Assembly (NCBI GenBank): GCA_963714395.1
Contig: CAVQOO010000068.1
Location: 18,728 to 82,727, forward strand
Length of the DNA stretch: 64,000 nucleotides
Direction: 5' to 3'
DNA from: Bryobacteraceae bacterium
GTDB taxonomy: Bacteria; Acidobacteriota; Terriglobia; Bryobacterales; Bryobacteraceae
The position numbers and the translations under genes are program-made. The notes under the pieces are model-generated. The model made no database searches. It saw only the letters and a list, made by a program, of their open reading frames with translations, and was not told the DNA's origin. Shown piece by piece: positions 15,352 through 45,707 of this stretch. Each line of letters opens with the position of its first letter. The first letter of the stretch is position 1.

Positions 15352-15368
15352 GGGCCTTGGGCCCGATT

Positions 15369-16710: not shown

Positions 16711-17379
16711 TCACGTACCAACTTGGACGATTGGCGATCGCGGCCCTTATCTGCGGCGGACTCGCCAGTGGGGTCGCCCCTGGCGATTGTCAGCAACGGC
16801 TCGATCGGTAGCCAGACCAACAACTCTTGCGAGGTGGCGGGAGTCAACAGCGGAAACTGCGATACACAAAACATCGACAAGCATCCCGCCTGGGCCAACC
16901 CATCGACGGGGTCGAACTGGGTTTCATTCGCCCAGACGGGGAACGATAACGGAGCCAGCTTCATTTCAAATGGAATAGACGTCGAGTTTTATCATCCCTT
17001 TGTGCTGCCAACGGATTGGGATGCGGCGGAGGGCTCCATCAGCGTCATGGGAGACGACACGGCGCAAGTGCGGTTGAACGGCGACGTGATCTACGATTTC
17101 GCGGAAAACAATGGCTATCCGACCTGCGCGCTCAATGGAATCGGATGCCTGGACCAGACCAAGCAGACCATCGATCTGACGCCGGAAATGTTCAATTACG
17201 GAGTCGGGAATTCGAACACCTTTACTTTTGTAGTGGCGCAGCGGGGCGGGGGCGGATACGGCTTGAACTATGCGGGTTCGGTGGATGGGTTCGCCACGCC
17301 CAATGAGGTTCCGGAACCCTCGACATACATGCTCATCGGAGCAGGTCTGATCGGGCTGTACCTGGCTCGCAGGAGCTAG
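16711..17379 (+). CDS. PEP-CTERM sorting-domain secreted protein, with a frameshift at the signal-peptide junction (~16780)
   Basis: The C-terminus VPEPSTYMLIGAGLIGLYLARRS is a canonical PEP-CTERM (PEP, TM helix, basic tail). A TTG/RBS at 16711 gives signal peptide ...LAIAALICGGLASGVA in a different frame from the mature part. Confidence 0.7.
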   Translation, partial: SRTNLDDWRSRPLSAADSPVGSPLAIVSNGSIGSQTNNSCEVAGVNSGNCDTQNIDKHPAWANPSTGSNWVSFAQTGNDNGASFISNGIDVEFYHPFVLPTDWDAAEGSISVMGDDTAQVRLNGDVIYDFAENNGYPTCALNGIGCLDQTKQTIDLTPEMFNYGVGNSNTFTFVVAQRGGGGYGLNYAGSVDGFATPNEVPEPSTYMLIGAGLIGLYLARRS

Positions 17380-23356: not shown

Positions 23357-23806
23357 GTGAATCCCGACATCACCAACCCGGACATCGTTAGTCCGGATAT
23401 TGTCAGTCCCGACATCGTCAACCCGGACATCGTCAGTCCCGACATCACGAATCCTCTCATCACCACCGCCGAGGTCTACAGCCCGACTATCACGAATCCC
23501 GACATCGTCAATCCGGACATCGTCAGCCCCGACATCAGCACAGTTGACATCTCAAGCCCGCAGATCGTAAGTCCGGACATTGTCAGTCCTGACATTGTCA
23601 GTCCCGACATCGTCAACCCGGATATCAGCACGTTCCAGATCATCAATCCGGATATCGTGAGTCCCGACATCGTCAGCCCCGATATTGTGAGCCCGGACAT
23701 CGTGAGCCCGGACATCGTCAACCCGGATATCACGGCTATCCGAATCGTCAGCCCGGACATTGTGAGTCCGGACATCGTGAGTCCGGACATCGGCAACCTG
23801 TCGTCA
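23357..23806. repeat. about 30 tandem 15-bp coding repeats encoding (S/N)PDIV pentapeptides
   Basis: Direct reading: ccggacatcgt(c/g)ag(t/c) units; protein NPDITNPDIVSPDIVSPDIVNPDIV... Confidence 0.9.
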
Positions 23807-29101: not shown

Positions 29102-29162
29102 CTTCGTCGGATTCCAGAAGCGATACTGGATCTATTGAAGTTACTATCTTCCGTGCTGGCTA

Positions 29163-31099: not shown

Positions 31100-32902
31100 A
31101 TGCAGATGTATGTCTACGCGGGCCTGGCCCTATTAGGGCTGGTGCTGCTCGCTGTATTGAGCAAAGTGTTGTTTGGCTGGGTTCTCATCCGGGAGGACCA
31201 GGTCGGCCACGTGGTTCGGAAGTTCGGCGCGAAGGATCTGCCGCAGGGGCGGATTGTCGCCCTGGAGGGTGAGGCCGGTTATCAGGCGCGTACACTCGCT
31301 CCCGGCGTCCATTTCTGGTATTGGCCGTGGATGTTCAAGGTCGACCGGAAACCAATAGTGGTGGTGAAGCCGGGACAGATTGGCCTGGTGGTGGCCAAGG
31401 ACGGCGACGCGCTGCCGCAGGACAGGATTCTCGCTCGCCGCGTCGATTGCGGGAACTTCCAGGACGCGGAACAATTCCTGCGAAACGGGGGCCAAAAAGG
31501 CAAGCAGAGCGCGGTGCTGACCACCGGAATGTATCGCATCAATCAGGTGCTGTTTGAGATTTTCACCGCCGATGTGACTTCGGTGCCTCACAACAAAGTG
31601 GGCATCCTGACGGCCAGGGACGGCGCTCCCATGCCGGCAGGCCAGATGGCGGCCCCGGTGGTGGGAGGCCATTCGAACTTCCAGGATCCGGAAGCCTTTC
31701 TGCACAATGGCGGATACCGCGGTTTGCAGGAGCAAATCGTGCTGGCCGGCCAGTACAATCTGAATCCGTGGTTCGTCGACGCCGAACTGGAGGAACTGTA
31801 TGAGGTCCCGATCGGGCACGTCGGCGTTGTGGTGAGCTTCGTGGGCAGCGACGAGAAGGACATTTCCGGCGAGTCCTTCACCCACGGCAACATCGTCCCG
31901 CGGGGAGGCAAGGGTGTCTGGAGCGAGCCGCTGTATCCCGGCAAGCATCCGCTGAACCTGCGCTGCATGCGCGTTGAACTGGTACCGACCACGAACATCG
32001 TGCTCAACTGGGCAGACGCCCGAAGCGAGGCGCACAAGCTGGATGAAAAGCTGTCGACGATCACAGTCCGTTCGCGCGACGGCTTCACGTTCAATCTCGA
32101 CGTCAGCCAGATCATCAACATCGGTGCAACCAAGGCGCCATGGGTAATCAGCCGAGTGGGCAGCGTTCGCAACCTGGTGAATCAGGTGCTGGAGCCGCTG
32201 GTGGGCAACTACTTTCGCAACAGCGCGCAGAACTACACGGTGCTCGACTTTCTGTCGGCGCGCAGCGACCGGCAGCGGGAAGCGCGGGAGCACATCAGCC
32301 GGGCGATTCTCGAATACGACGTTCAAAGCGTCGATTCCCTGATCGGCGACATCACACCGCCTGCGGCACTGATGGACACGCTGACCGCGCGCAAACTTGC
32401 GGAGGAACAGAAGAAGACGTTTGAGGTGGAGCGGGAAGCTCAGGAGAGCCGCAAGACGCTGGAAGCGGAGAAGGCGCTGGCCGAAAAGCAGCGCGAACTG
32501 GTCAACGAGGAACAGAATGTGATGATCGCGCAGCGCAAGGCGCAAGCAGCGGTGCGCCATGCCGAAGGCGATTCCTCGGCGATGTCGATCCGCGCCAACG
32601 GCGAGGCGGAGGCCATTCGCCGCCGGGGTACGGCCGAGGCGGAGATCTCGGCCATCAAGGGCGAGAACGAGGGCCGGGCGATTCAGGCTGTCGGTTTGGC
32701 CCGTGCGGAGGCGGCGCGCAAGGGCGTCGAGGCGATGGGCGAGTACTATGGGCTGCTGCAGATTTTCCAATCGCTGGCCGAAAAAGGCATCCGGCTGACT
32801 CCGGATGTCATGGTGGGCGGCACACAGCCAGCGGCATCGGATGCCGTGCTGGCGTTGCTGGCGGCGCAGATGAGCAAAGCGACGCAGCCGAAGCACGATT
32901 GA
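31100..32902 (+). CDS. flotillin-like SPFH/Band-7 membrane protein (YqiK/FloA-like)
   Basis: 600-aa intact ORF preceded by an RBS (caggag). N-terminal TM helix (LALLGLVLLAVL). SPFH region. Long Ala/Glu/Arg/Lys coiled-coil tail (LAEEQKKTFEVEREAQESRKTLEAEKALAEKQRELV...) typical of flotillins. Confidence 0.8.
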   Translation: MQMYVYAGLALLGLVLLAVLSKVLFGWVLIREDQVGHVVRKFGAKDLPQGRIVALEGEAGYQARTLAPGVHFWYWPWMFKVDRKPIVVVKPGQIGLVVAKDGDALPQDRILARRVDCGNFQDAEQFLRNGGQKGKQSAVLTTGMYRINQVLFEIFTADVTSVPHNKVGILTARDGAPMPAGQMAAPVVGGHSNFQDPEAFLHNGGYRGLQEQIVLAGQYNLNPWFVDAELEELYEVPIGHVGVVVSFVGSDEKDISGESFTHGNIVPRGGKGVWSEPLYPGKHPLNLRCMRVELVPTTNIVLNWADARSEAHKLDEKLSTITVRSRDGFTFNLDVSQIINIGATKAPWVISRVGSVRNLVNQVLEPLVGNYFRNSAQNYTVLDFLSARSDRQREAREHISRAILEYDVQSVDSLIGDITPPAALMDTLTARKLAEEQKKTFEVEREAQESRKTLEAEKALAEKQRELVNEEQNVMIAQRKAQAAVRHAEGDSSAMSIRANGEAEAIRRRGTAEAEISAIKGENEGRAIQAVGLARAEAARKGVEAMGEYYGLLQIFQSLAEKGIRLTPDVMVGGTQPAASDAVLALLAAQMSKATQPKHD

Positions 32903-32932
32903 GCCGGTTTCACCGACGGGCGCTCTAAGCCT

Positions 32933-34378
32933 GTGCTAATTTTGAAGTTTGGCTCCGCTCACGAGGCGGTTTTCGTGCAGGTATTTCTACAAGGCAAAAT
33001 CCTGGGCGCCGACGGGTTTGTCGAGGCCCACGGAAGTGATCTTCAACAACTCGGCGGGAGTTGTCTCTATATTTCCCTGCTGAGCGAGGCGGTTCCGCGC
33101 GGCCTCCTGGACGCGCTTAAACTGTCGCCGGAGCTGCTGGGCTCCAGCGGCGGCGGCCAGTTTCTTGTCCTGCTGCCAGGCGAAATCCTCGCCGAGGCCA
33201 ATGCCTACCTGACTGAAGCGACGCGACGGCTCGCGGCGTTCTCCGGCAGGCGTTTGAGGCTGGTTTGGGCCTCGACGGAGAACCTGGGAGTATGGAGCGA
33301 CGTCCGGCGCCGTCTCGACGGCGAGATGGTCCATTGGAGCGGCCTGAACGCATTGGAGCCGGACGGATTGTTCGATCCTTTCGTTGACTCACTGCAGGGC
33401 GGCGAGTGGATGGGCAGCTTGTTCGAGAGTCTGCCGGACTCGGCCGCGGCGGTGCTCGATTTCGCAGAACCCGGCTTGCTGCGGCGCGCAGGCGATCCGC
33501 ACGCCGTGGCGACGCACCGGGCATTGAACGATGCCGGGGATGCGCCTGCCACGCTGAAGGACCTGGCCGAACGAGCGCAAGGGCGCAGCGCCTGGGGGAT
33601 TCTGCGAGGCGAAATCGACCAGTATGAGTCGCGGCTGCGGCAGGCACAGAGCGTCGAGGAGTACATGCCGCTGACGGCTTTCTTCAAGCCGTTTTTCACC
33701 GGAGAAGTTCAGGTTCTGTGCATGCAGGGCGCATTCTGGCGGAAGGTGACGGTGCTATCAGCCGGCGGCAACGGCTTTGCGGTGGCCGGTTCGTGGGACG
33801 CGCTGATCGAGTTTGCGCGGGAAATGCAGCGGTTGTATCACCGGACGGCGGAGGAAGTGCTGCGCGAGCAGGCTGGTCCGGAGGCGAAAACGCTCTCGAT
33901 GGGACTCGCCCTGGCCGCGACGGCGGATTCGGCCCCCGCGCCGGTGTGGGTAGAGGCAGGACGTCAATTGAGCGTGGCAAAGTCATCTTCTCGGGACTCT
34001 ATCTCGGTATTTGGCCGTGTTGTGGATTCAAAACAGCTCGCCGAAGCCTCGGATTTGAAGAACCTGATGGTTCGCCTGGTGGACGAGTTTGGGGCAAGCC
34101 CGCAATTCCTCGGGGAGTTGGGAGCGTTTTACCGCGAAACCGACCGGGTTCTGCCGGCACGCAACCAGCAGCGGCAGGCCGATGCGCAGCAGCGTCCTTG
34201 GCGGCTGCATCGCCGGTTGAACCGCGTGCTTGACTCGGAAGGTCGCCACCGTGATTTTCAAAAGGCTCGCGCCGCAGTGCAGGCAGCGTTCCTCACGCGC
34301 GGGCAGGGACAATTGAAGCTGAGGCCCTCCGGCCGCGTCGCCCTGGAATGGGCGCGGCTGGCCAAAGAGGCGGAATAA
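32933..34378 (+). CDS. Cas10-like large subunit (two degenerate palm/cyclase-like domains, no HD domain)
   Basis: GTG start 30 nt after the flotillin stop. ...LLGSSGGGQFLVLLPGE... (near 33140-33185) and ...LSAGGNGFAVAGSWDALIEFAREMQRLYH...TLSMGLALAA (near 33756-33900) mirror the Cas10 GGDD segment (GGDDllv.g.wd.v.ela..i...f...TiSaGi), with GGDD replaced by GGGQ and GGNG. Size of 481 aa. Position at the head of a csm2-3-4-5-like operon. Confidence 0.5.
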   Translation: MLILKFGSAHEAVFVQVFLQGKILGADGFVEAHGSDLQQLGGSCLYISLLSEAVPRGLLDALKLSPELLGSSGGGQFLVLLPGEILAEANAYLTEATRRLAAFSGRRLRLVWASTENLGVWSDVRRRLDGEMVHWSGLNALEPDGLFDPFVDSLQGGEWMGSLFESLPDSAAAVLDFAEPGLLRRAGDPHAVATHRALNDAGDAPATLKDLAERAQGRSAWGILRGEIDQYESRLRQAQSVEEYMPLTAFFKPFFTGEVQVLCMQGAFWRKVTVLSAGGNGFAVAGSWDALIEFAREMQRLYHRTAEEVLREQAGPEAKTLSMGLALAATADSAPAPVWVEAGRQLSVAKSSSRDSISVFGRVVDSKQLAEASDLKNLMVRLVDEFGASPQFLGELGAFYRETDRVLPARNQQRQADAQQRPWRLHRRLNRVLDSEGRHRDFQKARAAVQAAFLTRGQGQLKLRPSGRVALEWARLAKEAE

Positions 34379-34380
34379 TA

Positions 34381-35130
34381 ATGAGCGAAATCGAAGAGCA
34401 GAACCAGAATCTTCCGGAAGAAAATCCGGAACCCAGGCCGGAGCCGGCAGTGGAAGCTCCTCAGGCCGCCGAAGCGCCTGCTGCTGAGGCTCCAGTTGCC
34501 GAGGTTTCGCCGGCGGCATCGCCCGCGGAAGCTCCGGCTGCCGCCGCCGCACCGGCGGCAGGCGAACCTAGGCCGGAGCGTCCTCCCCGCGGCGAAAGAA
34601 GCGATCGCGGACCGCGCCCGGAACGAGGACCTCGCCCTGAGCGCGGTCCCAAGCCTGAACGCAGCGAGCAGCGCCCCGAGCAACGTGGCGGCGAACGTCC
34701 AGGCGGCGGCGACCGCGGTGGAGACCGAGGCAGACCTCCGCTTCGGGGCCGGGAAGGTCCGCGCCCCGGCGGACGCCCGCCCGAGCTGATGCTGGACATC
34801 GATCTCGAAAAGCTGATTCACGACAGCCTCTATCTGGACAACCAGGCCCACACCGTCGTGGTTCGCATGCGCGACATGGACTCGGGCACCCGCAGCCAGC
34901 TTCGCCGGCTGTTCAGCGCCACCCGCCGCGCCTGCCGCGCGGTCGAGTCCGAACGGCAGCACCACTTTGTGATGCTGCGGGCACGCCTGGCCTATACGAT
35001 TGCGCGCCATCAGTTGCGCAGCCTCGATCCGCTGGAAAAGCTTCTGCTCCAGGTCACGCGAAAGAATGACCCGCGCGGCTACGAGCGTTTCCGCGATCTC
35101 TTCGAGGCCATTGTGGCCTACAACGAGTAA
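34381..35130 (+). CDS. Cas11/Csm2-like small subunit candidate with a roughly 130-aa low-complexity Pro/Glu/Arg/Ala-rich N-terminal extension
   Basis: ATG immediately after the cas10-like stop. The N-terminus is repetitive (PERGPRPERGPKPE..., GGDRGGDRGRP). The C-terminal ~110 aa look alpha-helical (LEKLIHDSLYLDNQAHTVVVRMRDM...LRARLAYTIARHQLRSLDPLEKLLLQV...FRDLFEAIVAYNE) at the position where csm2 sits in III-A operons. Confidence 0.4.
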   Translation: MSEIEEQNQNLPEENPEPRPEPAVEAPQAAEAPAAEAPVAEVSPAASPAEAPAAAAAPAAGEPRPERPPRGERSDRGPRPERGPRPERGPKPERSEQRPEQRGGERPGGGDRGGDRGRPPLRGREGPRPGGRPPELMLDIDLEKLIHDSLYLDNQAHTVVVRMRDMDSGTRSQLRRLFSATRRACRAVESERQHHFVMLRARLAYTIARHQLRSLDPLEKLLLQVTRKNDPRGYERFRDLFEAIVAYNE

Positions 35131-35155: not shown

Positions 35156-35989
35156 ATGAGTTCCCATACCGCCGATACGAAGCTCGGCCTGATCGGCAAG
35201 CTCCTGCTCGATGGCGAGCTGATTTGCGACACCGGCCTGCACATCGGTGCGGGCAAAGGCTCGCTCGATTTGGGCGGAGCCGACAATCCGGTCGTCAAGG
35301 ACGCTTTCGGGCGTCCCTACGTCCCTGGCAGTTCACTGCGGGGGCGCATCCGGGCGCTGCTCGAGCAGGCGCACGGCCACGCTGTCGCCTCCGATCTGGT
35401 CTACTTGTCGCGCCGCCGCGGACAGGAAGTCCGAATTCATCAGAGCGACGATCCGGGTGACGAAATCTGCCTGCTTTTCGGGCGCAATCCGGGCCGCATG
35501 GAGCGCGTTTCCGGAGATGCGCTGGAGCCCTCGTCGGCGACGCCAGCGAGGCTCACCGCCTATGACGCTCCGCTGGAGCTGGACTCGATTACAGTGCAGA
35601 TGCGCGAGAATCTCGACGACGAACTGACTGAGGTGAAGAGCGAAAACTCCATCGACAGGCTGACCGCGCAGGCTCTGGCACGCACATTGGAGCGCGTCCC
35701 GGCGGGGGCGAGGTTCCGGGTTCGGTTCGTGATCGACATCCTGTGCGCGGAGGACCGCGAACTGGTGTCGCCATTCGTGGCGGGCATTCGATTGCTGGAA
35801 GACGATTCGCTCGGGGGAGGCGGTTCCAGAGGCAGCGGCCGAGTGCGCTTCACGTCGTGGAAGGTCTCCTGGCGGAACAAGTCCTACTACACAGCCGCCG
35901 GCGCCGAGGCGACACTGGCCTCGGCCGGCACGACAGCCGAACTGCAAGCCGCGGTCGCCGATCAGGAATTCTCCGGACGCCTGGCCTAA
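35156..35989 (+). CDS. Cas7-group RAMP, Csm3-like backbone subunit
   Basis: RBS ggaaggag before the ATG. ...CDTGLHIGAGKGSLDLGGADNPVVKDAFGRPYVPGSSLRGRIRALLE... matches the Csm3 N-terminal signature, including the catalytic-loop Asp in G.DNP..KD and the PxxPGSSxKG motif. The C-terminal glycine-rich loop is LGGGGSRGSGRV. Confidence 0.7.
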   Translation: MSSHTADTKLGLIGKLLLDGELICDTGLHIGAGKGSLDLGGADNPVVKDAFGRPYVPGSSLRGRIRALLEQAHGHAVASDLVYLSRRRGQEVRIHQSDDPGDEICLLFGRNPGRMERVSGDALEPSSATPARLTAYDAPLELDSITVQMRENLDDELTEVKSENSIDRLTAQALARTLERVPAGARFRVRFVIDILCAEDRELVSPFVAGIRLLEDDSLGGGGSRGSGRVRFTSWKVSWRNKSYYTAAGAEATLASAGTTAELQAAVADQEFSGRLA

Positions 35990-37011
35990 TGAACCCCGCC
36001 CTGCTCGTTCGTCTCCGGCCCCTCACGCCGTGGCGCATCGGGAGCGATTCCGGCGCCCGCGAGCAGGCGTCCGCCGTGTATTCCAGCGACACTCTATTCT
36101 CGGCAGTATCCGGGGCATTCCAGCAGCTTGGCTGGCTCGAGGAGTGGCTCGGGGCCACAGTGCGGGGGGTCGAAGATCCCGCCGTGCGATTGACCAGTGC
36201 CTTTCCGTTCCAAAAGGGACTCCTGTATCTGCCGCCTCCCTCGGGGTTGTGGCCGCCGCCCGGAGAAAGCCGTGTGCGCTGGAAGGGCGCCCAACTGCTG
36301 CCCGCGCCGGTCCTGGCCGGACTGCTGCGCGGAGAGATGCCTGGCGAAGAAGAGTGGACCATTGATGGCCAGAGCGCTTGTCTCGTGCCCTCGCGACAAC
36401 GAGGGGCGGCCGGTCCGTATCGATTCCTGCGCCGCTCCCATGCGGCAGTCGACCGGCTTACCGGCGGCATCGCGGAGCCTTATTCCGTCGCTTGCACACA
36501 GTTCGCGCCTGAGGCGGGACTCTGGTGTGCCGCGGAGTTCTCTTCCCACACGGCATATGCGATCTGGTCGCCCAAACTACAGGCGGCGTTCCGGCTATTG
36601 GCCGACTCCGGACTCGGCGGCCTGCGGAGTCGCGGCTTTGGCCGTTCGCGGACCCCACTCTTCCAGGCGGGTACGCTTGCGGAATTGATCTTCGGGGCCG
36701 CGGCGCCAGTGTCTGCCGCCGCGCCTGCCGCATGGTGGCTCCTTTCGCTCTTCTCGCCTGCCGGTGACGACGCGGTCCATTGGGAACGGGGCAGTTACGA
36801 TCTCGTGACCCGCACCGGCCGCGCTGTTGACGGACGGCTGAAGCTGTCGACTCGCATGGTCCGCGAGGGAGGCGTCCTGGTTTCGGATAAGCCCTTGCGA
36901 GGCACGGCGCTCAATGCCGCTCCGCCCGAAGCGCCCCATCCATTGTGGCGCGCGGGTTTCGCCGTCGCCCTGCCGATCGCATGGTCCGGCGCTGGAAGGG
37001 GGGTGGCATGA
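35989..37011 (+). CDS. Cas5-group RAMP, Csm4-like subunit
   Basis: Start overlaps the csm3-like stop (TAATG). N-terminal ...PWRIGSDSGA...YSSDTLFSAVSGAF is Csm4-like. Glycine-rich loop GLGGLRSRGFGRS. Position after csm3 matches the III-A order. Confidence 0.6.
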   Translation: MNPALLVRLRPLTPWRIGSDSGAREQASAVYSSDTLFSAVSGAFQQLGWLEEWLGATVRGVEDPAVRLTSAFPFQKGLLYLPPPSGLWPPPGESRVRWKGAQLLPAPVLAGLLRGEMPGEEEWTIDGQSACLVPSRQRGAAGPYRFLRRSHAAVDRLTGGIAEPYSVACTQFAPEAGLWCAAEFSSHTAYAIWSPKLQAAFRLLADSGLGGLRSRGFGRSRTPLFQAGTLAELIFGAAAPVSAAAPAAWWLLSLFSPAGDDAVHWERGSYDLVTRTGRAVDGRLKLSTRMVREGGVLVSDKPLRGTALNAAPPEAPHPLWRAGFAVALPIAWSGAGRGVA

Positions 37012-38174
37012 CGCGCTACCGTCTCACAGTCTTGACGCCGATGCTGATCGGCGACGGCCAGAGATTGGCCCCGATCGATTACATGGTCTGGAAAGACCAG
37101 GTCAATGTGCTCGACCAGAAGAAGATCTTCCGGCTCCTGGCTAAAAGTCCGCGGCTGGACAGCTACCTGTCCCAAATCCGCCGGGCCGACAAGCTGGACT
37201 TCAACTCCTGGGGCGGCTACGCCCAGAACTATGCGCTGCGCCGCATTCCGCTCGAGTCCCCGGCCCTGGGCCGCGTGTTTGAGCGCACTCTGCCGGAGCA
37301 CCTCTTTCTGCCGACTTTCGCCACCACTCCCTCCGGGAGCCTCCATATCCCGGCCACCGCAATCAAAGGAGCGTTGAGGACAGCGCTGCTGACGCAACGG
37401 GCGACGAACTCCCATTGGGCACAGTTCTCTGAACGGTTGGAAGCCGCCGAACGGGCGCCCAGAAGTCCCGGCGAGATCCTGGAAGCGGCCGTTTTGGGTT
37501 CACAGGGGCAAGCCCGCACTCGGGGGTTCCTGCTGGCCGACTCGGAGCCGCGCCCCGCGGGCGGGCTGACTCGAATCTACCTGACCCGCACGGCCACCCT
37601 CGTCGATCGCGGCGGACGACTCGAACTTGGCTGGAAAACCGCGCCTCGCGGCACGCTGGACGGTAAGCGCGCCGCTGACGCAACGCCAGTCCTGGCTGAA
37701 ATGGCCATTCCGGGGAGTGTGTTCGAAGGCTCGTTCTCCGAGGCGCCATTTTTCCGCCGGACAGAGACCCTGCGCGCCCTGAACTGGAAGGAATCCCCCG
37801 GGGCGCTCCGCTATGCGGAAGCCTCAAACGCATGGGCCGCACGCTGTCTCGCCGCTCAAAGGATCTGGGCCGAGAAGGCCGCGATTCCGGCCGTCATCCG
37901 TTCACTCGATACCCTGGAAGCACGCCGCAAGGATCTGGAAGCCTCGCGCACTGGCTGCCTGGTCTGCTTGGGGTGGGGGACTGGCTATCTGCCCAAGGCC
38001 GCCGATCCGAATCCGGAAGATGAGGTCAAGGACAAAGTTCTGCGCTCGCTTCCGGTGATCGCGTCGGCCATTCGTACTGGCTTGCCCTTTCCCAAGACGA
38101 GGCGGATCGTATTCAGCGCCGATCAGCCGGCGACGCTGCCAGGCTGGGCGGCAATTCAGTTCGAACTCTCTTGA
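37008..38174 (+). CDS. Cas7-group RAMP, Csm5-like subunit
   Basis: ATGA overlap with the preceding gene. ...PSGSLHIPATAIKGALRTALLTQ matches the Csm5 P.IPGSS.KGalRt motif. Glycine-rich loop CLGWGTGY. Confidence 0.6.
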   Translation: MTRYRLTVLTPMLIGDGQRLAPIDYMVWKDQVNVLDQKKIFRLLAKSPRLDSYLSQIRRADKLDFNSWGGYAQNYALRRIPLESPALGRVFERTLPEHLFLPTFATTPSGSLHIPATAIKGALRTALLTQRATNSHWAQFSERLEAAERAPRSPGEILEAAVLGSQGQARTRGFLLADSEPRPAGGLTRIYLTRTATLVDRGGRLELGWKTAPRGTLDGKRAADATPVLAEMAIPGSVFEGSFSEAPFFRRTETLRALNWKESPGALRYAEASNAWAARCLAAQRIWAEKAAIPAVIRSLDTLEARRKDLEASRTGCLVCLGWGTGYLPKAADPNPEDEVKDKVLRSLPVIASAIRTGLPFPKTRRIVFSADQPATLPGWAAIQFELS

Positions 38175-38263
38175 AACACAGCGGAAAGCCCGATCATAGT
38201 AGTCTAGAAGGATAGTGAAGGGACACCAGTCCTTTCTTGTGGGCGGCTGTCAGCGTACCCAAC

Positions 38264-39169
38264 ATGTACAACGCTTTTTTCGGCTTTCGGGAAAATCCAT
38301 TCAACCTCAGCCCGGATCCCGCGTTCCTCTATCGAAGTCCGCAGCACGATGAGGCTCTCGCGAACCTGATCTACGGCGTTCACAGCCGGAAGGGGTTCAT
38401 TGTCCTGACCGGCGAGGTGGGTACAGGCAAGACCACTATGCTCGAGTGTCTCCGGGACTATCTGGAGGCCCAGTATATTGAGTTCGCCTTCATCTTCAAC
38501 TCCAGGATTTCGTCGGACCAGTTTTTCGAGATGATCGCCTACGATCTCGATCTCCGCTGCTCGCACAAGTCCAAGACAGAAGTCCTCTTTGCCCTCAATC
38601 ACCTACTGATCCAGCAGGCCAATCAAGGGCGCACCACGGTGCTAATCGTCGACGAAGCCCATAACCTCGAGTGGGATGTACTCGAGGAGATCCGGCTCCT
38701 GGGAAACCTGGAGAATCCGCGCCTCGGCAAACTCCTGCAGATAGTACTTGCCGGTCAGCCCGAGCTTGACCGGAAACTCGATGCCCCGAACCTCCGGCAG
38801 CTCAAGCAGCGCATCGTGCTCAGGTGTTCTCTATCTCCGTTCCAGCCGTCCGACACCGAAGCCTACATTCGAGCCCGGCTCGACAAGGCGGGCATGCCCG
38901 ATCAGAGCGTGTTTTCGGCTCCATTGATACGGGAGATTCACACGCGAAGTCAGGGGATTCCCCGCATTATCAATGCGCTCTGCGACAACATGCTCCTGAC
39001 GTGCTTCGCTCTGGAACGACGCGATGCCTCGGCTGAAATGCTCGAGGAGATCTGCAGGGACATGCGGCTCGAGTGGCCGGGGATGCCGCAAGTTCGTGGC
39101 GCACGAGGCGGATCGGATCGGCCCGGGTCTGTGGACACGACCGCTTCGCTGTCTTCTCACATGGACTGA
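38264..39169 (+). CDS. ExeA/GspA-like AAA+ ATPase (PEP-CTERM-locus ATPase-like family)
   Basis: MYNAFFGFRENPFNLSPDPAFLYRSPQHDEALANLIYGVHSRKGFIVLTGEVGTGKTTMLECL closely follows the ExeA N-terminal pattern and Walker A. Walker B is VLIVDEAHNL. Intact 301-aa ORF, 90 nt downstream of the csm5-like gene. Confidence 0.8.
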   Translation: MYNAFFGFRENPFNLSPDPAFLYRSPQHDEALANLIYGVHSRKGFIVLTGEVGTGKTTMLECLRDYLEAQYIEFAFIFNSRISSDQFFEMIAYDLDLRCSHKSKTEVLFALNHLLIQQANQGRTTVLIVDEAHNLEWDVLEEIRLLGNLENPRLGKLLQIVLAGQPELDRKLDAPNLRQLKQRIVLRCSLSPFQPSDTEAYIRARLDKAGMPDQSVFSAPLIREIHTRSQGIPRIINALCDNMLLTCFALERRDASAEMLEEICRDMRLEWPGMPQVRGARGGSDRPGSVDTTASLSSHMD

Positions 39170-39409
39170 TCTGGCTATCGAACGGAGACTCAGATAAATC
39201 CTACCAAAGTCCTAACATAGGTCTAAGTGTAACTTTCCATTCGCCTTAGGCGTAGTTAAGAGAAAGTACTGTGAGTAATAGTAGGATTAATCCTAAGAGA
39301 CCTGCCAATAGTTGCATCTTAGGCTAAGGAAGATCCCTTAGTCTGAGGGAATTGCCCACCTGCACTGTTCACTGCGGGCAAGGCAGACAAAACGAAGGTA
39401 AAACCTCAG

Positions 39410-39854
39410 ATGTCCAAGCTGCTTGGCATTAGTCTTATTTGTGCTACGCTCCTTTTGATTGGGCTTTCCGCTACTGCGGGAACGCTCCCAATTGGTACGG
39501 ATGCAAACTCTCTCTCCCTTGGCCGCGATTGCCTCCTCCCGAATCCCTGGGATGATAAGCTCTCCCTCGGCCCGATGCCTCCTCCCGAATCCCTGGGATG
39601 ATAAGCTCTTCCTCGGCCCGATGCCTCCTCCCAATCCCTGGGATGATAAGCTCTTCCTCGGCCCGATGCCTCCTCCCAATCCCTGGGATGATAAGCTCTT
39701 CCTCGGCCCGATGCCTCCTCCGAATCCCTGGGATGATAAGCTAGCAGGCCTTCTCCGCCGAATTTTGCGAACCAAAGCCGACGAGTTTCCCCCCTGGGGG
39801 GCAGCCTGTCGGCTTTCATTTTGCTTCCGATTATTATTGTGTAAGCCAAGCTGA
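39410..39854 (+). CDS. possible small secreted repeat protein (15-aa PNPWDDKLFLGPMPP units) running through the tandem repeat
   Basis: RBS-like aggtaaaacctcag before the ATG. The signal-peptide-like N-terminus MSKLLGISLICATLLLIGLSATAG is in ORF 39410..39601. Coding continuity through the repeat requires the 46-bp units to be 1-nt indel errors (ORF 39459..39854 then reads ...PNPWDDKLFLGPMPPPNPWDDKLFLGPMPP...). Confidence 0.3.
39530..39750. repeat. perfect tandem direct repeat, 45/46-bp unit, about 4.7 copies, no spacers
   Basis: Units gcctcctcc(c)(g)aatccctgggatgataagctct(t/c)cctcggcccgat begin at 39530, 39576, 39622, 39667 and 39712. The periods are 46, 46, 45 and 45, and the copies are otherwise identical. 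Confidence 0.9.
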
Positions 39855-40226
39855 CCGCGAAAGTGCCTGAGTCCGCTGATTGTCTACGGAGTAGTTGGCA
39901 TTTCTGCGACGCTGTATGTTTATCTCCTTACTCTCCTGCTCAAAGGGTATGCCCGTTCCTATTTCGGATTGCTCCTGTATGTCGTAGTCTTGACGCTGAC
40001 GACTGGTGATGGACATGGCAGTTTACAAGTCCGAGGGCTGGAGCAATCTTTTCCTGATCAGTGAGACGGCCCGATGGGTGTGCCCTGTATCTGGTTGTGC
40101 ACTCATTCGTATGGAAGGCGCTTTCATCCAAGCCGGGCCTGGGGTGGATCCGGCACTGGCTTATCGCAGTCAGCGTCCTCATCGTGGTTCGCAGCGTTGT
40201 ACTTCACCCACAGCGAAAAGGCATCG

Positions 40227-40514
40227 ATGTGGGTGCTGAGGACGATCAACATTATCAGCATTGCTGGCATGGTGCTGAACCTGATTCTCTGGACATTGCT
40301 GGTTCGCTACCGCAATACGGACCTCACATTGTTCCTGGTGACGAGCGGATTGGGAATCCAGGCTGCGATGGAGGCTGCGGCATGGTCGATGCGAAGCCTC
40401 AGCATCCGTAGCCTTTTTGGCGCTGCATACTATGTACAGATTCTCGGCCACTTGCTTTGCTTGCTTATCTGGATCATGGCCTTTCGCCGCAAGGCCCCAA
40501 GCTCCAAGGCCTGA
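40227..40514 (+). CDS. small hypothetical membrane protein
   Basis: Hydrophobic segments (INIISIAGMVLNLILWTLLV; ILGHLLCLLIWIMAF) within ORF 40074..40514. No family recognised. Confidence 0.3.
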   Translation: MWVLRTINIISIAGMVLNLILWTLLVRYRNTDLTLFLVTSGLGIQAAMEAAAWSMRSLSIRSLFGAAYYVQILGHLLCLLIWIMAFRRKAPSSKA

Positions 40515-43500
40515 CTACGGCGTGACGGTGTAGCTACCCGTCTGCGGTGAAGGACTGGTGAGTCCGGCTGAATCTGTGGCGTTCATCCAGATCGATTTGG
40601 TTCCCGTGAAGCCGGGGATGAAGGCGATATCGAGCATGACGGTGAGCGTGTTGCCCGAGGCGATCGTCCAGGAACCTGATCCGTACACCCGGCATTGGCT
40701 GTTCTGCACTGTCTGGGCGGCCCCGAGTGTCAAGGACGTGCTCAGCGCAGCGGCGTCGTCGGCCAGCATCACCTTGCCCGCGGCTATGTCGACTTGCAGG
40801 TAGCAGGCCTGATTGGCTTGCTGTACCGAGTTGATCAGGACGCGGGGCCAAAGGATATCGTGAGCTCCGTTGGCATCGGTCCAAGTCAATGTGAACGTCT
40901 GTCGCGCCCCGCTGGCAGCAGCAGGGGAAACGCTAACGGAGATGGGCGCTGCCGGCAGATTGCTCATGACATCGTACGTGCCCAATTGGGGCGCGGCGGA
41001 GGTGAGTCCGCCGAGATCAGTCGCGTTCATGAATACGGCCTTCAGTCCGTTGAACTTGGCTTTGAAGCGAATGTCGATATAGGCGCTGAGTGTGGAGCCG
41101 GTGGCCTGAACACTGGAACTCTGCATTTGTAAAGCGCATTGCGAGTTAGCGACAACGTCGGAGGTTCCCAATCGGCCCGCCTGCGACGGGCTGCCGGCAT
41201 CGTCGGCCAGGGTCACAAGCCCCGCGGCGCGGTCGATCACGAAGTAGCATCCGCCCGGAGCCTGCTGTGAAGAGTTGATCAGCACCCTGGCTGAGCTGAT
41301 GTCGTTGGCGCCATTGGCGTCGGTCCAGACAAACTGAAAAACCTGCCCGCCACCGGAACCGGTGGAGGGCGAAACAGAGACCGGAACCGGCGGTAGCTGG
41401 GCGCTGGCAGCCACCGTGTATGTACCCATCAGCGGAGTCTGGCTCAGCATTCCCGCCGTGTCGAGCGCGTTGGCCCAGAGGGACTTGGCGCCATTGAAGA
41501 CAGGTTTGAAGGAGAGATCCAAGCGGGCTACCAAAGTGCTCCCCAGGATCTGTAAGCTGGTTCCGCTTCCCCGCAGCGTGCACTGGCTATTGGAGGCGCT
41601 GGCCTGTGCGCCCGCCTGGACCGGACTCCAGGAGGCGCCGTCGTCGGCGGCCAACGCGACGCTGCCGGTGGCAGGTCTTACCTGGAGGTAGCAGCCCCAC
41701 GCGGCCGACTGCGCCGAATGGATCAGGACCTCCGCCCTCTGAATGTCCGCGCCGCCATTGAGATCGATCCAGGAGAATACGAACACCTGCTCCGACCCCG
41801 ACCCCGCGGACGGAGTCAGGGACGATGCATGAGGCGCCTGATTGACAGGAACAACGACCGTGTAGCTTCCCATCCAGGGAGAATCGCTGGTCGCGCCGGA
41901 AAGGTCCGTGGCATTAGCCCAGACGCTCTTGGCGCCGTTAAATGGACTCTTGAACGAGAACTGGAAGCTGACGCTCAGTTTTGTCCCGCTCAGCAGCAAG
42001 GAGCTTCCCGCCGTATGCACGGTGCACTGACTGTTGGACAGGGCGACCCCTGAACCCGCGGCAGCCGCACTCCATCCAGAGCCCGTGTCGTTGGCCAGCG
42101 AGACGGCCAGGGTCTGCCGGTCGAACGCGACATAGCAGCCCGCCAGCGAGGTCTGCGAGGAATTGACGAGGACTCTGACGGTCCTGATGTCCTGGGGGCC
42201 ATTCGCATCGGTCCACTCGGCCGTCAGCGTCGTTCCCGTTCCACTGCCCGAACTCGGGCTGACCGAGAGTGGGACTGGCGACATGTTGATGATGACGGCG
42301 ACTGAAAACGATCCGGTCTGCTGCCAGCCGCTGGTTGCCGCCGAAGCGTCTTCACCGGCCGTCCAGATTGTCCGGGCGCCGTTGAAACCCGGGAAGAAGG
42401 CGATTTCAATACTCCAGTGGACCAGTTGGCCTTCGACCGCGACAGTCACCCCGGCCGGGCGCATCTCACAGCGGCTGTTGGCGACAGTCTGCGATGAGCC
42501 GACCGCAGCCAAGAGCCAATCGCTACCGGCATCGTTGCGGAGGCGAAGTGTGGAGGTCCTCCTGTCCAGTTCCAGCAGGCATGCTCCCGAATCCTGGGCC
42601 ACGTTGTGGAAGCGCATCCTCAGGAGAACCAGGTCGGAGGCGCCATTGCTGTCGGCGTATGTGATCGTGAATCGCTGCAGCGCACCCCCTCCCGCCGAGG
42701 GCGTCAACTGAACGAACACCGGAGCTGTGTTGTTGTTCGCCATGGGCGGAAATAGTCCGAAATCGAGATACCCCGTTTGCGCACCAGATGCGTCCGTAGC
42801 GGATGCGTAGATCGACTTGACCAGCGGGTTGGACGAGGCGAAGATGATGTCGAAGCCTATTTGAAGCCCGTTGGCCGTAAAGGAAATCACGGTTGCAGCC
42901 GGGCGAAGCTGACAGTGGGAATTAGCCAGCGGCGCGGCCGTGCCTGGAGCGGCCGAGTACCACCCGGTTCCAGAATCGTTAACCAGCCTAAGCAGCCCCG
43001 CTGCCCTGTCGTACTCCACGGCGCAAGCGCCAGCCTCGACGGGTGAAGTTCCAACCAGCAGGCGGACCTTTGCCAAATCTCCGGCGCCGTCGGCATCGGT
43101 GGCGAGCACGGTAAAGACCGCACCGACACCTGACGCGGTAGAGAAAGTCGCGGAGGCGACATCGGGAGGCGTATTGGCCTTGTCGGGTACGATCCACGTC
43201 CCGCCGCTGACATACCCGCTTTCGGCTTCGTCCACGGCTCGTGCAGCCGCAGCGATGGAGCGGGAGCCGGCAAAGGCTTTTGTGAAAGACAGACTGAGCC
43301 GGATGGAGACGCTCGTGCCTCCAACGGAAACTGTTGAGGTTGCACCTGAGAGGGTGCAGGCAGCCCCGGAGCTCGACGATGCCGTGCCTGGCGTAATGGG
43401 GATTTCTGTCGCGCCGCCCTCAGGCAAGACCATCAACTGGCCGGAGGAACGGATCCAGCGGACACGGCAAGTCAGGGACGCTCCGAGCAGATCGCCTAAA

Positions 43501-45707
43501 GCAAGTTCGACCCAGTTGAATTGGGTGGCGCCATTGGGGTGGGATGCCTGCACTTCGAAGACTCCCTGCTCGCCAGTGCCAGATGCCGGCGTTATCGAAT
43601 CGATCTGAGGCGCCGGACCAAGCGTGAAGCGAGTGACGAAGAACCGGAGTGCGCTGCCTGAAGGGGCGGGGGCCGGCCCACGCAGGGGGAGGTCGGGCGA
43701 GCCGCTCTGTCCGGCCACGACAACGGAGTTGCCCGGCGCCGGGGCGACTGCAAACACCGTGTCCGCACCTGCGCCGCCAATGTAGGTCGAGAATGGAACA
43801 GCCGTGCCGTCGGGTGTGAAGATCGTCAGAAACCCATCGGTTGAGCCCCGATAGCTCGTCACGACAGGATCCTGCAAAGGCAGGTTGACGGAAGTAGTCG
43901 CACCGCCCACGGCGATTCGCCCGTCGGGGAGCAAAGCCATGGTTTGGATCATGTCCTGGCCTCCGCCGCCAAGATAAGTCCCCCAGGCGAAACCGTTCAG
44001 CCCTGGATGGAGTTTGACGAGGAAGCCATCCCGGACACCTCCCATGGTTCCCAGCCACGCGCCCGGAGCCGGGAAATCAGCCGAGGGCGTATAGCCTGCC
44101 GCGTAGACATTGAGAGATCCGTCTACGGCCAGGGCCTCGACGCGCTCCGGCATGCTGGCCGTGCCAGCGCTCCCGCCCAGGTATGTGCCGGCAAGGATGA
44201 GGCTCCCCGATGAGGACAGCTTGAGGACGAAGCCGTCGAGCGCTCCCCGAAGGGAAGGCTGCGCCGCCCCAGGTGGCACGGGAAGGTCCGCTGAACCCGT
44301 TGACCCGCCCGCCAGAATGTCGCCGCCGGGCGCGATGGCGAGGGTCCGGACCAAGTCGTCGCCACCGCCTCCCAGGTAGGTGCTGTACTCCATGGCCCCG
44401 CCAAGGCCGTACCGGGCGACAAAACCATCCGTGGCCCCTCGGAGCGCCGTCTGCGGCGCGCCGGATACGGGGAAGTTCGTTGAAGAGGTCTGCCCTCCCA
44501 CCCAAACTCCCGTGGCCGATGCCGCCACCGAATAGGCTGAATCGTTCTGTGTGCCCCCCAGGTAGGAGCTGAAGAGCAGTTGCGATCCGTCAGCGGCGAA
44601 TTTCAGCAGGAAGGCGTCCGTGCCTCCCCTGGGTGAGGAAGCCGCACCGGCAACGGGGAAGTTCGCCGAGTTCGTACTGCCTGCGACAACGAGGCCTCCG
44701 TCGCTCGAGAGGGCGATCGCCTGCGCGCGATCATCGCCATTGCCGCCGATATAGTTGGCCCACAGAAGTTTGCCGGTTGCCGGATCCAGTTTGATCACGA
44801 CTGCATCAACCCCGCCTCCACGGGGAAGAATTGCCGCTGCCTGGGGGAAATCGGAAGCGTCGGTGTAACCGGCGACGTACACTGAGCCAAATGAATCAAC
44901 GGTCATCGCCGTGGCTGCGGAGATCCCGTTGCCGCCGAAGACGCCGCTGTAGTTGATCGCCGGATCGATGATCAGGCGCTCGTCGTTGAGCAGGGGTGCA
45001 ATGAAGCCGACGGAGTGACCCTCCTGCCCCTGGTGGATTCGAAACGAGACGTCGACGGGCTCGCCTGTCTCCGTCCAGGCGCGCGGCGGATCCTCGCGCC
45101 ACAGGCCATCGGGCATCTCAATCAGCAAGCCCCCGCCGGGTTCCACGCGAACCGCCCGGGCACCGTCGAAGGCAACCCGGATGACATCGGAAGAGACTCC
45201 AGGCTCGACAATGTAGTCGGACTTGATGCGGCCTTCACCGCCCATGAGCCGCAGGGAGATGCCCGGCCAGAGACTCTCAATGAGCAGGCACTCGCCGGAT
45301 TCAGATGTTTGATGCGGCCGTTCTCCCTCGCCCGTGAACCAGCGGATCGGCGCGCGCTGGCCGGTGCAAAGCTTCGCATGCGGGTGGGCCGCGCTGCCTG
45401 GATATCTGATGCGAAGGGTCCTGCCACTGTCCTGGAGACTCAGCGCCGGGCCGTCCGGACCGTTTTCCCAGGAAAGCCGAACTCCTCCGTCGGCTCGCCA
45501 GATCCCGGGCGCCGCCTCGAAGAACCACAATGGACCAGTCACTCCCGCGACCCGAGGTGAGGCCCATGCTTGCGACATCGCCAGCAGCGCCGTCAACGCG
45601 GCACGCCACGGCAGACCGGTGTTCTCCACGTTGGGCTTATCGACCGCCCCGGACGGAATTTGAATAGTGCCGGCACCCCTTAGCCCGTGCCGCGGGTGCC
45701 GTAGCAT
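40515..45707 (-). CDS. giant secreted protein with SBBP-type beta-propeller repeats and at least eight tandem ~140-aa Ig-like domains
   Basis: 1730-aa intact ORF. N-terminal signal. Repeated ...AIALSSDGGLVVAGSTNSANFP... (SBBP-like) units. Then repeated domains of the form SPS.GSG....F.F.W.D.NG..D....RVL.NS.Q....GCY...D......L..D.G..W... Confidence 0.8.
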   Translation of the reverse strand: MLRHPRHGLRGAGTIQIPSGAVDKPNVENTGLPWRAALTALLAMSQAWASPRVAGVTGPLWFFEAAPGIWRADGGVRLSWENGPDGPALSLQDSGRTLRIRYPGSAAHPHAKLCTGQRAPIRWFTGEGERPHQTSESGECLLIESLWPGISLRLMGGEGRIKSDYIVEPGVSSDVIRVAFDGARAVRVEPGGGLLIEMPDGLWREDPPRAWTETGEPVDVSFRIHQGQEGHSVGFIAPLLNDERLIIDPAINYSGVFGGNGISAATAMTVDSFGSVYVAGYTDASDFPQAAAILPRGGGVDAVVIKLDPATGKLLWANYIGGNGDDRAQAIALSSDGGLVVAGSTNSANFPVAGAASSPRGGTDAFLLKFAADGSQLLFSSYLGGTQNDSAYSVAASATGVWVGGQTSSTNFPVSGAPQTALRGATDGFVARYGLGGAMEYSTYLGGGGDDLVRTLAIAPGGDILAGGSTGSADLPVPPGAAQPSLRGALDGFVLKLSSSGSLILAGTYLGGSAGTASMPERVEALAVDGSLNVYAAGYTPSADFPAPGAWLGTMGGVRDGFLVKLHPGLNGFAWGTYLGGGGQDMIQTMALLPDGRIAVGGATTSVNLPLQDPVVTSYRGSTDGFLTIFTPDGTAVPFSTYIGGAGADTVFAVAPAPGNSVVVAGQSGSPDLPLRGPAPAPSGSALRFFVTRFTLGPAPQIDSITPASGTGEQGVFEVQASHPNGATQFNWVELALGDLLGASLTCRVRWIRSSGQLMVLPEGGATEIPITPGTASSSSGAACTLSGATSTVSVGGTSVSIRLSLSFTKAFAGSRSIAAAARAVDEAESGYVSGGTWIVPDKANTPPDVASATFSTASGVGAVFTVLATDADGAGDLAKVRLLVGTSPVEAGACAVEYDRAAGLLRLVNDSGTGWYSAAPGTAAPLANSHCQLRPAATVISFTANGLQIGFDIIFASSNPLVKSIYASATDASGAQTGYLDFGLFPPMANNNTAPVFVQLTPSAGGGALQRFTITYADSNGASDLVLLRMRFHNVAQDSGACLLELDRRTSTLRLRNDAGSDWLLAAVGSSQTVANSRCEMRPAGVTVAVEGQLVHWSIEIAFFPGFNGARTIWTAGEDASAATSGWQQTGSFSVAVIINMSPVPLSVSPSSGSGTGTTLTAEWTDANGPQDIRTVRVLVNSSQTSLAGCYVAFDRQTLAVSLANDTGSGWSAAAAGSGVALSNSQCTVHTAGSSLLLSGTKLSVSFQFSFKSPFNGAKSVWANATDLSGATSDSPWMGSYTVVVPVNQAPHASSLTPSAGSGSEQVFVFSWIDLNGGADIQRAEVLIHSAQSAAWGCYLQVRPATGSVALAADDGASWSPVQAGAQASASNSQCTLRGSGTSLQILGSTLVARLDLSFKPVFNGAKSLWANALDTAGMLSQTPLMGTYTVAASAQLPPVPVSVSPSTGSGGGQVFQFVWTDANGANDISSARVLINSSQQAPGGCYFVIDRAAGLVTLADDAGSPSQAGRLGTSDVVANSQCALQMQSSSVQATGSTLSAYIDIRFKAKFNGLKAVFMNATDLGGLTSAAPQLGTYDVMSNLPAAPISVSVSPAAASGARQTFTLTWTDANGAHDILWPRVLINSVQQANQACYLQVDIAAGKVMLADDAAALSTSLTLGAAQTVQNSQCRVYGSGSWTIASGNTLTVMLDIAFIPGFTGTKSIWMNATDSAGLTSPSPQTGSYTVTP

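Follow-up and report, generated by a model that had tools for sequence, protein, structure and literature searches.

A conserved ExeA/GspA-type ATPase gene beside a Csm-like cassette in Bryobacterales: linkage, separations, and possible roles

The window analyzed here is a stretch of 64,000 nucleotides (nt) from a Bryobacteraceae bacterium (contig CAVQOO010000068.1). It harbors five genes resembling those of the Csm effector complex of type III-A CRISPR-Cas systems and, next on the same strand, a gene for an AAA+ ATPase of the ExeA/GspA family. An earlier note on this DNA had described the ATPase as attached to the cassette and had proposed it as an accessory of a complex without cyclic oligoadenylate (cOA) signaling. 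The locus raises the question of whether the ATPase works together with the Csm-like complex or is an independent gene that has kept its place beside it. The genes concerned are as follows (lengths of proteins in amino acids, aa).

32975-34378, plus strand: short Cas10/Csm1-like large subunit, 467 aa, with two palm domains and a C-terminal helical domain
34381-35130, plus strand: Csm2/Cas11-like small subunit with a long, variable N-terminal extension
35156-35989, plus strand: Csm3/Cas7 backbone subunit with the catalytic Asp loop GGADNPVVKD
35989-37011, plus strand: Csm4/Cas5-like subunit, whose start overlaps the csm3 stop
37008-38174, plus strand: Csm5-like subunit, whose start overlaps the csm4 stop by 4 nt
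38175-38263, plus strand: csm5-ATPase gap of 89 nt, with the promoter-like TTGAAA-18-CATAGT at 38171-38200 (consensus scan)
38264-39169, plus strand: ATPase gene, 301 aa, soluble ExeA/GspA-family AAA+ ATPase with Walker A GEVGTGKTT and Walker B VLIVDEAH

The gene starts of the cassette were refined against alignments of orthologs, and the start of cas10 is the GTG at 32975.

The ATPase open reading frame (ORF) is a real, conserved gene. It runs on the plus strand from the ATG at 38264 to the stop codon at 39167-39169, and its translated N-terminus, MYNAFFGFRENPFNLSPDPAFLYRSPQHDEALANLIYGVHSRKGFIVLTGEVGTGKTTMLECL, is exactly the one quoted in the earlier note. The protein matched the Pfam family AAA_22 (PF13401, 4e-27) and the NCBIfam model TIGR03015 of XrtA/PEP-CTERM system-associated ATPases (E 1.2e-85). 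The latter alignment is end to end, pairing residues 1-269 of the ATPase with nearly the whole 269-position model, and its score of 287.2 bits falls short of the curated cutoff of 324.5 bits. The database holds at least 7,999 relatives, the best 120 of which are 76-99% identical, and the named ones are called 'ExeA family protein' or 'general secretion pathway protein A' (Bryobacteraceae, Paludibaculum, and Acidobacteria; JGI and NCBI names). The sequence also contains the N-terminal motif FG..PF..PDP..F, which we take to be typical of the ExeA/GspA family. Walker A GEVGTGKTT is invariant in 128/128 loci and DEAH is conserved; judged from these motifs, the ATPase is probably catalytically intact. 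It is orthologous across Bryobacterales. The ExeA/GspA-type identity proposed earlier is upheld by the AAA_22 and TIGR03015 matches; the predicted fold is nearest to Cdc6/ORC and TnsC.

The G+C content at third codon positions of the ATPase gene is 0.725, within the range of the csm genes (0.69-0.78), and a foreign origin by composition was rejected for this reason. Only P-loop families matched the ATPase in Pfam, NCBIfam, and PADLOC, with no CARF or SAVED sensor domain. As the matches to PADLOC defense-system models were weak and of P-loop type only, the ATPase was rejected as a known defense-associated ATPase.

The linkage to csm5 was assessed from both sides. From the cassette side, the ATPase gene follows csm5 on the same strand, within 4 kb, in 40 of the 55 species-level loci with enough downstream sequence (73%), and the best-kept upstream neighbor of the cassette, a protein with a VWA domain, reaches 23% of loci. 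From the ATPase side, 67 metagenome contigs with at least 500 nt upstream of the gene were available. Among these, csm5 is directly upstream in 46, lies at 0.4-3.7 kb in eight, and is absent in 13 (three of which have the full 10 kb upstream), so that 54/67 (81%) are linked. The earlier note had said that its idea would fall if cassettes of related genomes lacked the ATPase, and in most of these cassettes the ATPase is present. Additionally, Paludibaculum fermentans and an unrelated metagenome contig carry identical six-gene units with different flanks, and the flanks on either side turn over while the csm5-ATPase pair persists.

On a tree of Cas10 plus Csm5, 36 loci are in the adjacent state, eight have an insertion, and 15 have no ATPase. 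Adjacency spans the deepest split of this tree and reaches 100% in the window's major clade. The ATPase tree has the same close groupings as the cassette tree, and both the cassette and the ATPase appear to be vertically inherited. Adjacency of csm5 and the ATPase is the ancestral state, and there were several later losses; although not obligatory, the linkage is clearly stronger than the synteny of the other neighbors. A csm-less paralog clade of the ATPase was rejected, since the csm-less copies are orthologs interspersed on the ATPase tree.

The cassette itself is a tight operon, in which the csm genes overlap or lie 2-25 nt apart, and its five genes are always together and in constant order in every locus long enough to judge. 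Csm3 (TIGR02582, 6.3e-53) and Csm4 (TIGR01903, 4.2e-31) exceed the cutoffs of their models; Csm3 also matched the Csm3 structure 4qts in the PDB (2.2e-40), and Csm4 the PADLOC Csm4 model. Csm5 scored 38.7 bits against a cutoff of 38.3 (TIGR01899, 8.1e-10) and matched PADLOC Csm5 at 2.6e-16. Csm2 was recognized by Pfam Csm2_III-A (4e-10), TIGR01870 (6.6e-10), and PADLOC Csm2. Cas10 matched Pfam Cas10-Cmr2_palm2 (1.4e-07) and TIGR02578 (2.3e-28), the latter only over the C-terminal model positions 490-750 (~260 positions), and no HD nuclease domain was matched in the Pfam and NCBIfam scans. Its AlphaFold2 (AF2) model, with a mean predicted local distance difference test (pLDDT) of 77, matched type III-A Csm1 structures at E about 1e-16, with 410-470 aligned columns of targets of 700-770 aa. 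The catalytic loop GGADNPVVKD of Csm3 is identical in 103/105 loci. From these matches, the cassette is taken to be a type III-A-derived operon with a Csm3 that the intact loop predicts to be RNase-competent. As a side observation, the models match only the last ~95 residues of the ~250-aa Csm2, and its N-terminal ~150 residues (34381-34870) form a poorly conserved extension.

The palm-2 motif of Cas10 varies within the family. In 98/107 orthologs it reads GGDD or GGDE. The window has GGNG, the two loci most closely related to it have GGHG and GGGG, and the clade that diverges most (the related loci L110 and L151) has G(I/M)EG. The description of the complex as cOA-dead consequently fits the sublineage of the window and does not fit the family. 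The ATPase is still adjacent where Cas10 has lost GGDD, namely in the window, L110, and L151. Since the association predates the loss of GGDD and most orthologs keep the motif, the idea that the ATPase makes up for a dead cyclase or replaces lost cOA signaling does not fit.

With type III-A systems, the cassette shares the gene order cas10-csm2-csm3-csm4-csm5, Csm3 and Csm4 above the III-A equivalog cutoffs, and the catalytic Asp loop of Csm3. With III-G, it shares a cassette locus that lacks an array and adaptation genes (PMC12669027). Compared with III-A and with the reduced III-F, III-G, and III-H as described there, it is set apart by the combination of no HD domain, an intact catalytic Asp of Cas7, a GGDD that is intact in most members, no array, and vertical inheritance throughout the order. 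The 2025 CRISPR classification (Makarova et al. 2025, PMC12669027) does not mention an ExeA-type ATPase as a neighbor of type III loci. In full-text searches of the literature, we found no description of this cassette and no paper linking an ExeA-type ATPase to type III systems, in agreement with the earlier note, which had stated that the family is not known from CRISPR-Cas loci. The link between cassette and ATPase is apparently undescribed.

We favor a functional partnership, in which the ATPase acts with the Csm-like complex in the same pathway and is separately regulated, because the csm5-ATPase adjacency is the best-kept feature of the neighborhood, is ancestral, and survives the loss of both the downstream envelope genes and the cyclase motif. 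The chance that such a partnership exists is, in our judgment, even. As an AAA+ protein of ORC/TnsC-like type, the ATPase would then serve as an oligomeric switch or adaptor that is driven by ATP and couples the cytoplasmic, RNA-binding Csm-like complex to an envelope-facing half. That half would be made up of the downstream signal-anchored Pro-rich or TonB_C protein and a membrane protein, and the parts together have the look of a split ExeA-type protein. Coupling to the Csm-like complex, physical or functional, is plausible; it is inferred, as is the direction of signaling, whereas the data show the identity of the protein, its intact Walker motifs, an adjacency conserved beyond that of other neighbors, a promoter of its own, and relatives and neighbors of envelope type.

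Several observations weigh against the partnership, and the first group concerns the gap between csm5 and the ATPase. The same-strand position reported earlier was correct, and the distance of 90 nt becomes 89 nt, with csm5 ending at 38174. Across loci, the gap measures 23-262 nt, mostly about 75-165 nt, so that the ATPase stands off whereas the csm genes overlap one another. An extended -10 element of the form TGnTAnnnT (for example, CATGTTAGAATG) is present in 83/87 gaps at a median of 56 nt before the ATG, and shuffled gaps contained it in 6.3 +/- 2.4 cases. The window is one of the four gaps without the exact element. Instead, it has a weaker site resembling a sigma-70 promoter (38171-38200), and its gap had no terminator call. 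Toxin-antitoxin and other unrelated genes are inserted between csm5 and the ATPase in 8-10% of loci, and they encode a HicB-type antitoxin, a nucleotidyltransferase/HEPN pair, radical-SAM proteins, and a cupin-like protein. The separations number at least nine independent events on the cassette tree and at least five on the ATPase tree. In view of the ATPase's own -10 element, the inserted genes, and these repeated separations, the word 'attached' in the earlier note is too strong. The ATPase appears to be a separate, slowly evolving unit that is transcribed mainly from its own predicted promoter.

The remaining points against a partnership concern rates, context, and scope. Identity across loci is 71-91% for the ATPase, against 34-80% for Cas10 and 41-75% for Csm5 in the same loci, and such unequal rates are usually not those of tight physical partners. 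Cassettes that have no ATPase nearby keep GGDD and the active-site loop of Csm3, and a mixed set of genes follows them. A secreted Pro-rich or TonB_C gene follows the ATPase directly in about 46% of loci, csm-less ones included, and the nearest relatives outside the ATPase cluster (55-63% identity) are fusions of the ATPase with a transmembrane (TM) segment and a TonB_C or Pro-rich part. Finally, all of the evidence comes from one order, and inherited synteny could therefore account for it.

A second promoter-like element precedes the cassette.

32932-32942, plus strand: promoter-like extended -10 TGTGCTAATTT before cas10, between the stop of a Band_7 gene (32902) and the cas10 start

Most aligned loci conserve a motif of the TGTGCTAGATT type, about 35-45 nt ahead of the start of cas10. 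The strongly conserved extended -10 elements of cas10 (TGTGCTAGATT type) and of the ATPase (CATGTTAGAATG type) may define a common promoter form of Bryobacterales.

The genes downstream of the ATPase bear on both readings. Two of them were found in the window.

39410-39760, plus strand: signal-anchored Pro-rich tandem-repeat protein gene (PPPNPWDDKL, 45-nt units), frameshifted (Tandem Repeats Finder, TRF, and a repeat finder)
39879-40514, plus strand: remnant of a polytopic membrane protein (~213-225 aa), a pseudogene split over three reading frames

The repeat gene of the window encodes a signal peptide and five 45-nt repeats, one unit of which is 46 nt long because a run of C near 39587 has one base too many, which leads to a stop at 39601. 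For the membrane remnant, tblastn with the intact orthologs of L001 and L007 matched frames 2, 3, 1, and 2 in turn, which corresponds to at least three frameshifts. As a result, both envelope genes of the window are broken, while the ATPase and all csm genes are intact. Elsewhere, intact orthologs of the Pro-rich repeat protein (PPPDPW-type) are first after the ATPase in about 33/89 loci (~37%), with periods of 33-96 nt that are all multiples of 3. A 116-aa secreted TonB_C protein (Pfam 1e-19) takes this place in 8/89 loci (~9%), and in some 15-22% of loci the repeat gene is succeeded by a member of a family of polytopic membrane proteins of 213-234 aa. The Pro-rich and TonB_C partners persist in the csm-less loci L101, L105, L106, L116, and L127. 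The ATPase and its downstream gene look like a split ExeA-type protein. The repeats were also considered as a spacer-less array, and this was rejected on account of the in-frame signal peptide, the Pro-rich core common to differing units, and the periods divisible by 3.

A further downstream family, of secreted proteins of 223-240 aa that start with 'FDxKVRNYFFAG', is encoded immediately downstream of the ATPase in some loci; in two loci that have no ATPase, it directly follows csm5 (listed in L051 at 15060-15731, L057 at 15389-16081, L103, L108, L119, L126, and L142). This arrangement suggests that the ATPase gene alone was deleted or moved in those two lineages. Additionally, a 1730-aa DUF7948/SBBP beta-propeller repeat protein is encoded on the minus strand at 40515-45707 and converges on the locus; it is downstream only in the nearer relatives L001, L002, L006-L008, L011, L021, L022, and L026.

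The relatives of the ATPase point in the same direction as its downstream genes. An exhaustive search of 50%-identity representatives placed the stand-alone ATPases of Bryobacterales, of ~300 aa, in a single cluster, with a representative at 73% identity. The next relatives outside this cluster, with 55-63% identity and 390-630 aa, combine the ATPase module with a TM segment and a periplasmic part; several end in a C-terminal TonB_C domain and others in a Pro-rich region, and they are membrane-anchored. Against TIGR03015, the cluster representative (P0241) scored 297.8 bits and the nearest outside relatives 206-294 bits, and none reaches 324.5. TIGR03015 is the best-scoring family, with a similar size, the N-terminal motif, and both Walker motifs, and the ATPase differs from it in falling below the cutoff and in having csm-like and small envelope genes as neighbors, not an exosortase or exopolysaccharide (EPS) locus.

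The comparison with ExeA/GspA, the accessory ATPases of type II secretion systems (T2SS) that are presumably grouped with MshM-type ATPases as COG3267, gives a similar picture. The AAA_22 module and the N-terminal motif are shared, and the nearest relatives outside Bryobacterales are built like ExeA, with an ATPase in the cytoplasm, a TM segment, and a domain in the periplasm. In contrast, the ATPase described here is the soluble module alone, with no TM segment in the model and no periplasmic domain in its 301 aa, and the periplasmic half, where found, is a separate downstream gene with Pro-rich repeats or TonB_C. No genes for GspB/ExeB, a secretin, T2SS, or pilus biogenesis were found among the scanned ORFs of the window.

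These features give the strongest alternative its weight. It holds that the ATPase is the cytoplasmic half of a split ExeA/GspA-type system for envelope assembly or energy transduction, with the csm adjacency as ancestral synteny and no coupling. It would explain the conserved promoter of its own, the insertion-tolerant gap, and the repeated separations, and it agrees with nearest relatives that are ATPase-TM-TonB_C fusions and with Pro-rich genes in ~37% and TonB_C genes in ~9% of loci that persist where csm genes are missing. The much slower evolution of the ATPase than of the Csm proteins and the lack of a match to PADLOC defense models fit it as well. However, the adjacency to csm5 (73-81%) beats the tie to an envelope partner (about 46%) and is ~3x that of the best upstream neighbor. 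Moreover, the ATPase is intact where the downstream envelope genes are pseudogenes, so that it has a function for which they are not required, and its 300-aa form is soluble, with no TM segment in the model. The independent envelope ATPase is thus a serious contender, somewhat short of an even chance, and the two readings are close. The earlier note had named co-transcription with the downstream repeat protein, in place of the cas-like genes, as something that would refute its idea, and this is borne out in part: the ATPase also has a conserved link to Pro-rich or TonB_C genes, csm-less loci included.

The predicted fold was compared with known AAA+ proteins. The AF2 model of the ATPase has a pLDDT of 69 overall and 70-88 in the core, and consists of an ATPase core with a disordered tail. 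In Foldseek, the nearest structures were Cdc6/ORC (E 4e-9; template modeling score about 0.5), followed by TnsC of the CRISPR-associated transposon (CAST) of type I-B, of ShCAST (V-K), and of Tn7 (E 4e-7 to 2e-6; scores about 0.45-0.5), with RuvB about level with TnsC for this model. The fold is consistent with an oligomeric AAA+ ATPase of initiator or TnsC type, a predicted fold being no demonstration of DNA binding. That Cdc6/ORC and TnsC handle nucleic acids counts in favor of the partnership. No solved structure homologous by sequence was found with phmmer, and the family profile gave phage Mu MuB as its best match in the PDB, a weak one (E 0.021).

Two further explanations fare much worse. 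In one, the ATPase would be a nucleotide-signal effector that senses a cyclic oligonucleotide or another product of the Cas10 palm, in place of CARF/SAVED effectors. GGDD or GGDE in 98/107 Cas10 proteins, the lack of a CARF/SAVED gene in the window, and the position of the ATPase as the only widely conserved neighbor would fit such a role. However, the ATPase is adjacent, intact, and equally conserved where the motif is lost (GGNG in the window; G(I/M)EG in L110 and L151), has no known sensor domain among its P-loop matches, and persists where there are no csm genes in cis, and we regard this role as very improbable.

In the other, the ATPase would be the relic of a CRISPR-associated transposon. 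The ATPase belongs to Pfam AAA_22, as do TniB-type proteins, and its predicted fold matches TnsC among others; as with TnsC in CASTs, its gene lies beside an RNA-guided, Cascade-like module that has no nuclease. It differs from TnsC, TniB, and MuB in its marginal sequence similarity (MuB, E 0.021), in having no transposase or TniQ, in its vertical inheritance, and in a predicted fold that Cdc6/ORC match at least as well and RuvB about equally. A TniB/TnsC-like target selector left by an RNA-guided transposon on a type III module is hardly credible: the AAA_22 domain, the Foldseek matches to TnsC (type I-B and V-K CASTs and Tn7), the weak match to the MuB profile, and a cassette with no array and a Cas10 with no nuclease domain would suit it, but no transposase (TniA/TnsB/MuA), TniQ, or integrase was found in the window or in the conserved flanking clusters, the cassette and ATPase trees share groupings, as under vertical inheritance, and, by sequence, ExeA/TIGR03015 (287 bits) is a much better match than any TnsC or MuB.

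Arrays, guides, and adaptation genes were searched for in the window and in the related loci. No CRISPR array was found in the window with TRF and repeat scans, nor with a k-mer array finder in the 2.04 Mb that the window and 163 related loci make up, to which the array searches were confined. What these searches returned were tandem repeats in coding sequence alone, and their periods are divisible by 3. No cas6, cas1, cas2, CARF, or SAVED gene was found among the scanned ORFs of the window. For a guide or other non-coding RNA nearby, Rfam gave only two tRNAs, and short-word blastn found no widely conserved non-coding element in the 500 nt after the ATPase. The 240-nt spacer at 39170-39409 has a G+C content of 44.6%, against a window mean of 62%, and is rich in CCTAAG/CTTAGG-like words; its fold is no better than that of shuffled sequences (z -1.26), and its conservation is limited to close relatives.

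The short Cas10 is present in at least 540 species-level genomes, as counted in a pattern scan with one genome per species. The best 80 loci are titled Bryobacterales, Bryobacteraceae, Solibacter, Paludibaculum, or broader Acidobacteriota/Terriglobia, except for three oddly labeled contigs of metagenome-assembled genomes. No cassette in another phylum was found with the most divergent Cas10 (L110) as the query; this search stayed inside the family, and the named matches were Bryobacter or Bryobacteraceae. The named sources of the stand-alone ATPase are, like those of the cassette, all Bryobacterales or other Acidobacteriota.

Other genes of the window surround the cassette. An SPFH/Band_7 protein of 600 aa is encoded on the plus strand at 31100-32902, directly upstream of cas10; as it is absent from all 163 related loci, it was rejected as a component of the system. 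Divergently upstream of the Band_7 gene and the cassette, at 26447-30950 on the minus strand, lie genes for a Ser/Thr kinase-TPR protein (884 aa) and an FHA-GAF-SpoIIE/PP2C phosphatase (595 aa), neither of which is among the conserved flanking clusters of the other loci. In about 21-23% of loci, including Paludibaculum fermentans, a protein of 930-1131 aa that has no domain matches and a secreted VWA-domain protein are encoded directly upstream of cas10 on the same strand (L002, 86-4505; L004, 1399-4191; L009, 4957-5712), and this pair may be a second, lineage-restricted accessory module. The ORF at 23357-24403 has a tandem repeat of 15 nt (a pentapeptide) in about 28 copies, with weak matches only, to Extensin_1 (29.7 bits; cutoff 105) and to a GLTT repeat. 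The housekeeping genes around the cassette include PEPCK, LeuA, and SelA.

The earlier note had further pointed to a PEP-CTERM protein as a sign of an exosortase system.

16567-17379: PEP-CTERM protein gene (PF07589, TIGR02595), the sole PEP-CTERM gene in the window, 21 kb from the ATPase

The gene is present, from 16567 on, whereas a local exosortase context is not: no exosortase or EPS-locus genes were found among the scanned ORFs of the window, nor among the conserved flanking clusters examined or named.

The functional link between the ATPase and the Csm proteins rests on gene neighborhood within one order and is unproven. If the coupling is false, the cassette is still a reduced variant of type III that has not been described before, and the ATPase is an envelope gene of the ordinary kind. 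The known array-less type III variants are patchy and defense-like, whereas the Csm-like operon described here is vertical across a whole order of soil Acidobacteria. The invariant RNase site, the vertical inheritance, and the ATPase as best-kept neighbor suggest that a CRISPR effector complex was taken over for housekeeping or regulation. If the coupling is true, the ATPase would represent a new accessory class for type III systems and would give a 'secretion' ATPase family of poorly understood mechanism a cytoplasmic, nucleic-acid-linked role, in a case that is testable in the cultured Paludibaculum fermentans and Bryobacter aggregatus. In a more specific and tentative form, which we consider rather unlikely as a whole, Bryobacterales would possess a domesticated, chromosomally fixed ribonucleoprotein derived from type III-A, lacking an array and an HD domain and having a Csm3 competent as an RNase and a Cas10 that is mostly competent as a cyclase. 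With the ExeA-type ATPase of ORC/TnsC-like fold as its conserved partner, it would make up a non-adaptive system that is RNA-sensing or RNA-guided and signals to the envelope through a split ExeA-like periplasmic half, consisting of the Pro-rich or TonB_C protein and a membrane protein. If that is true, CRISPR-Cas exaptation would gain a new functional class, and the ExeA/GspA family a new role in the cytoplasm.

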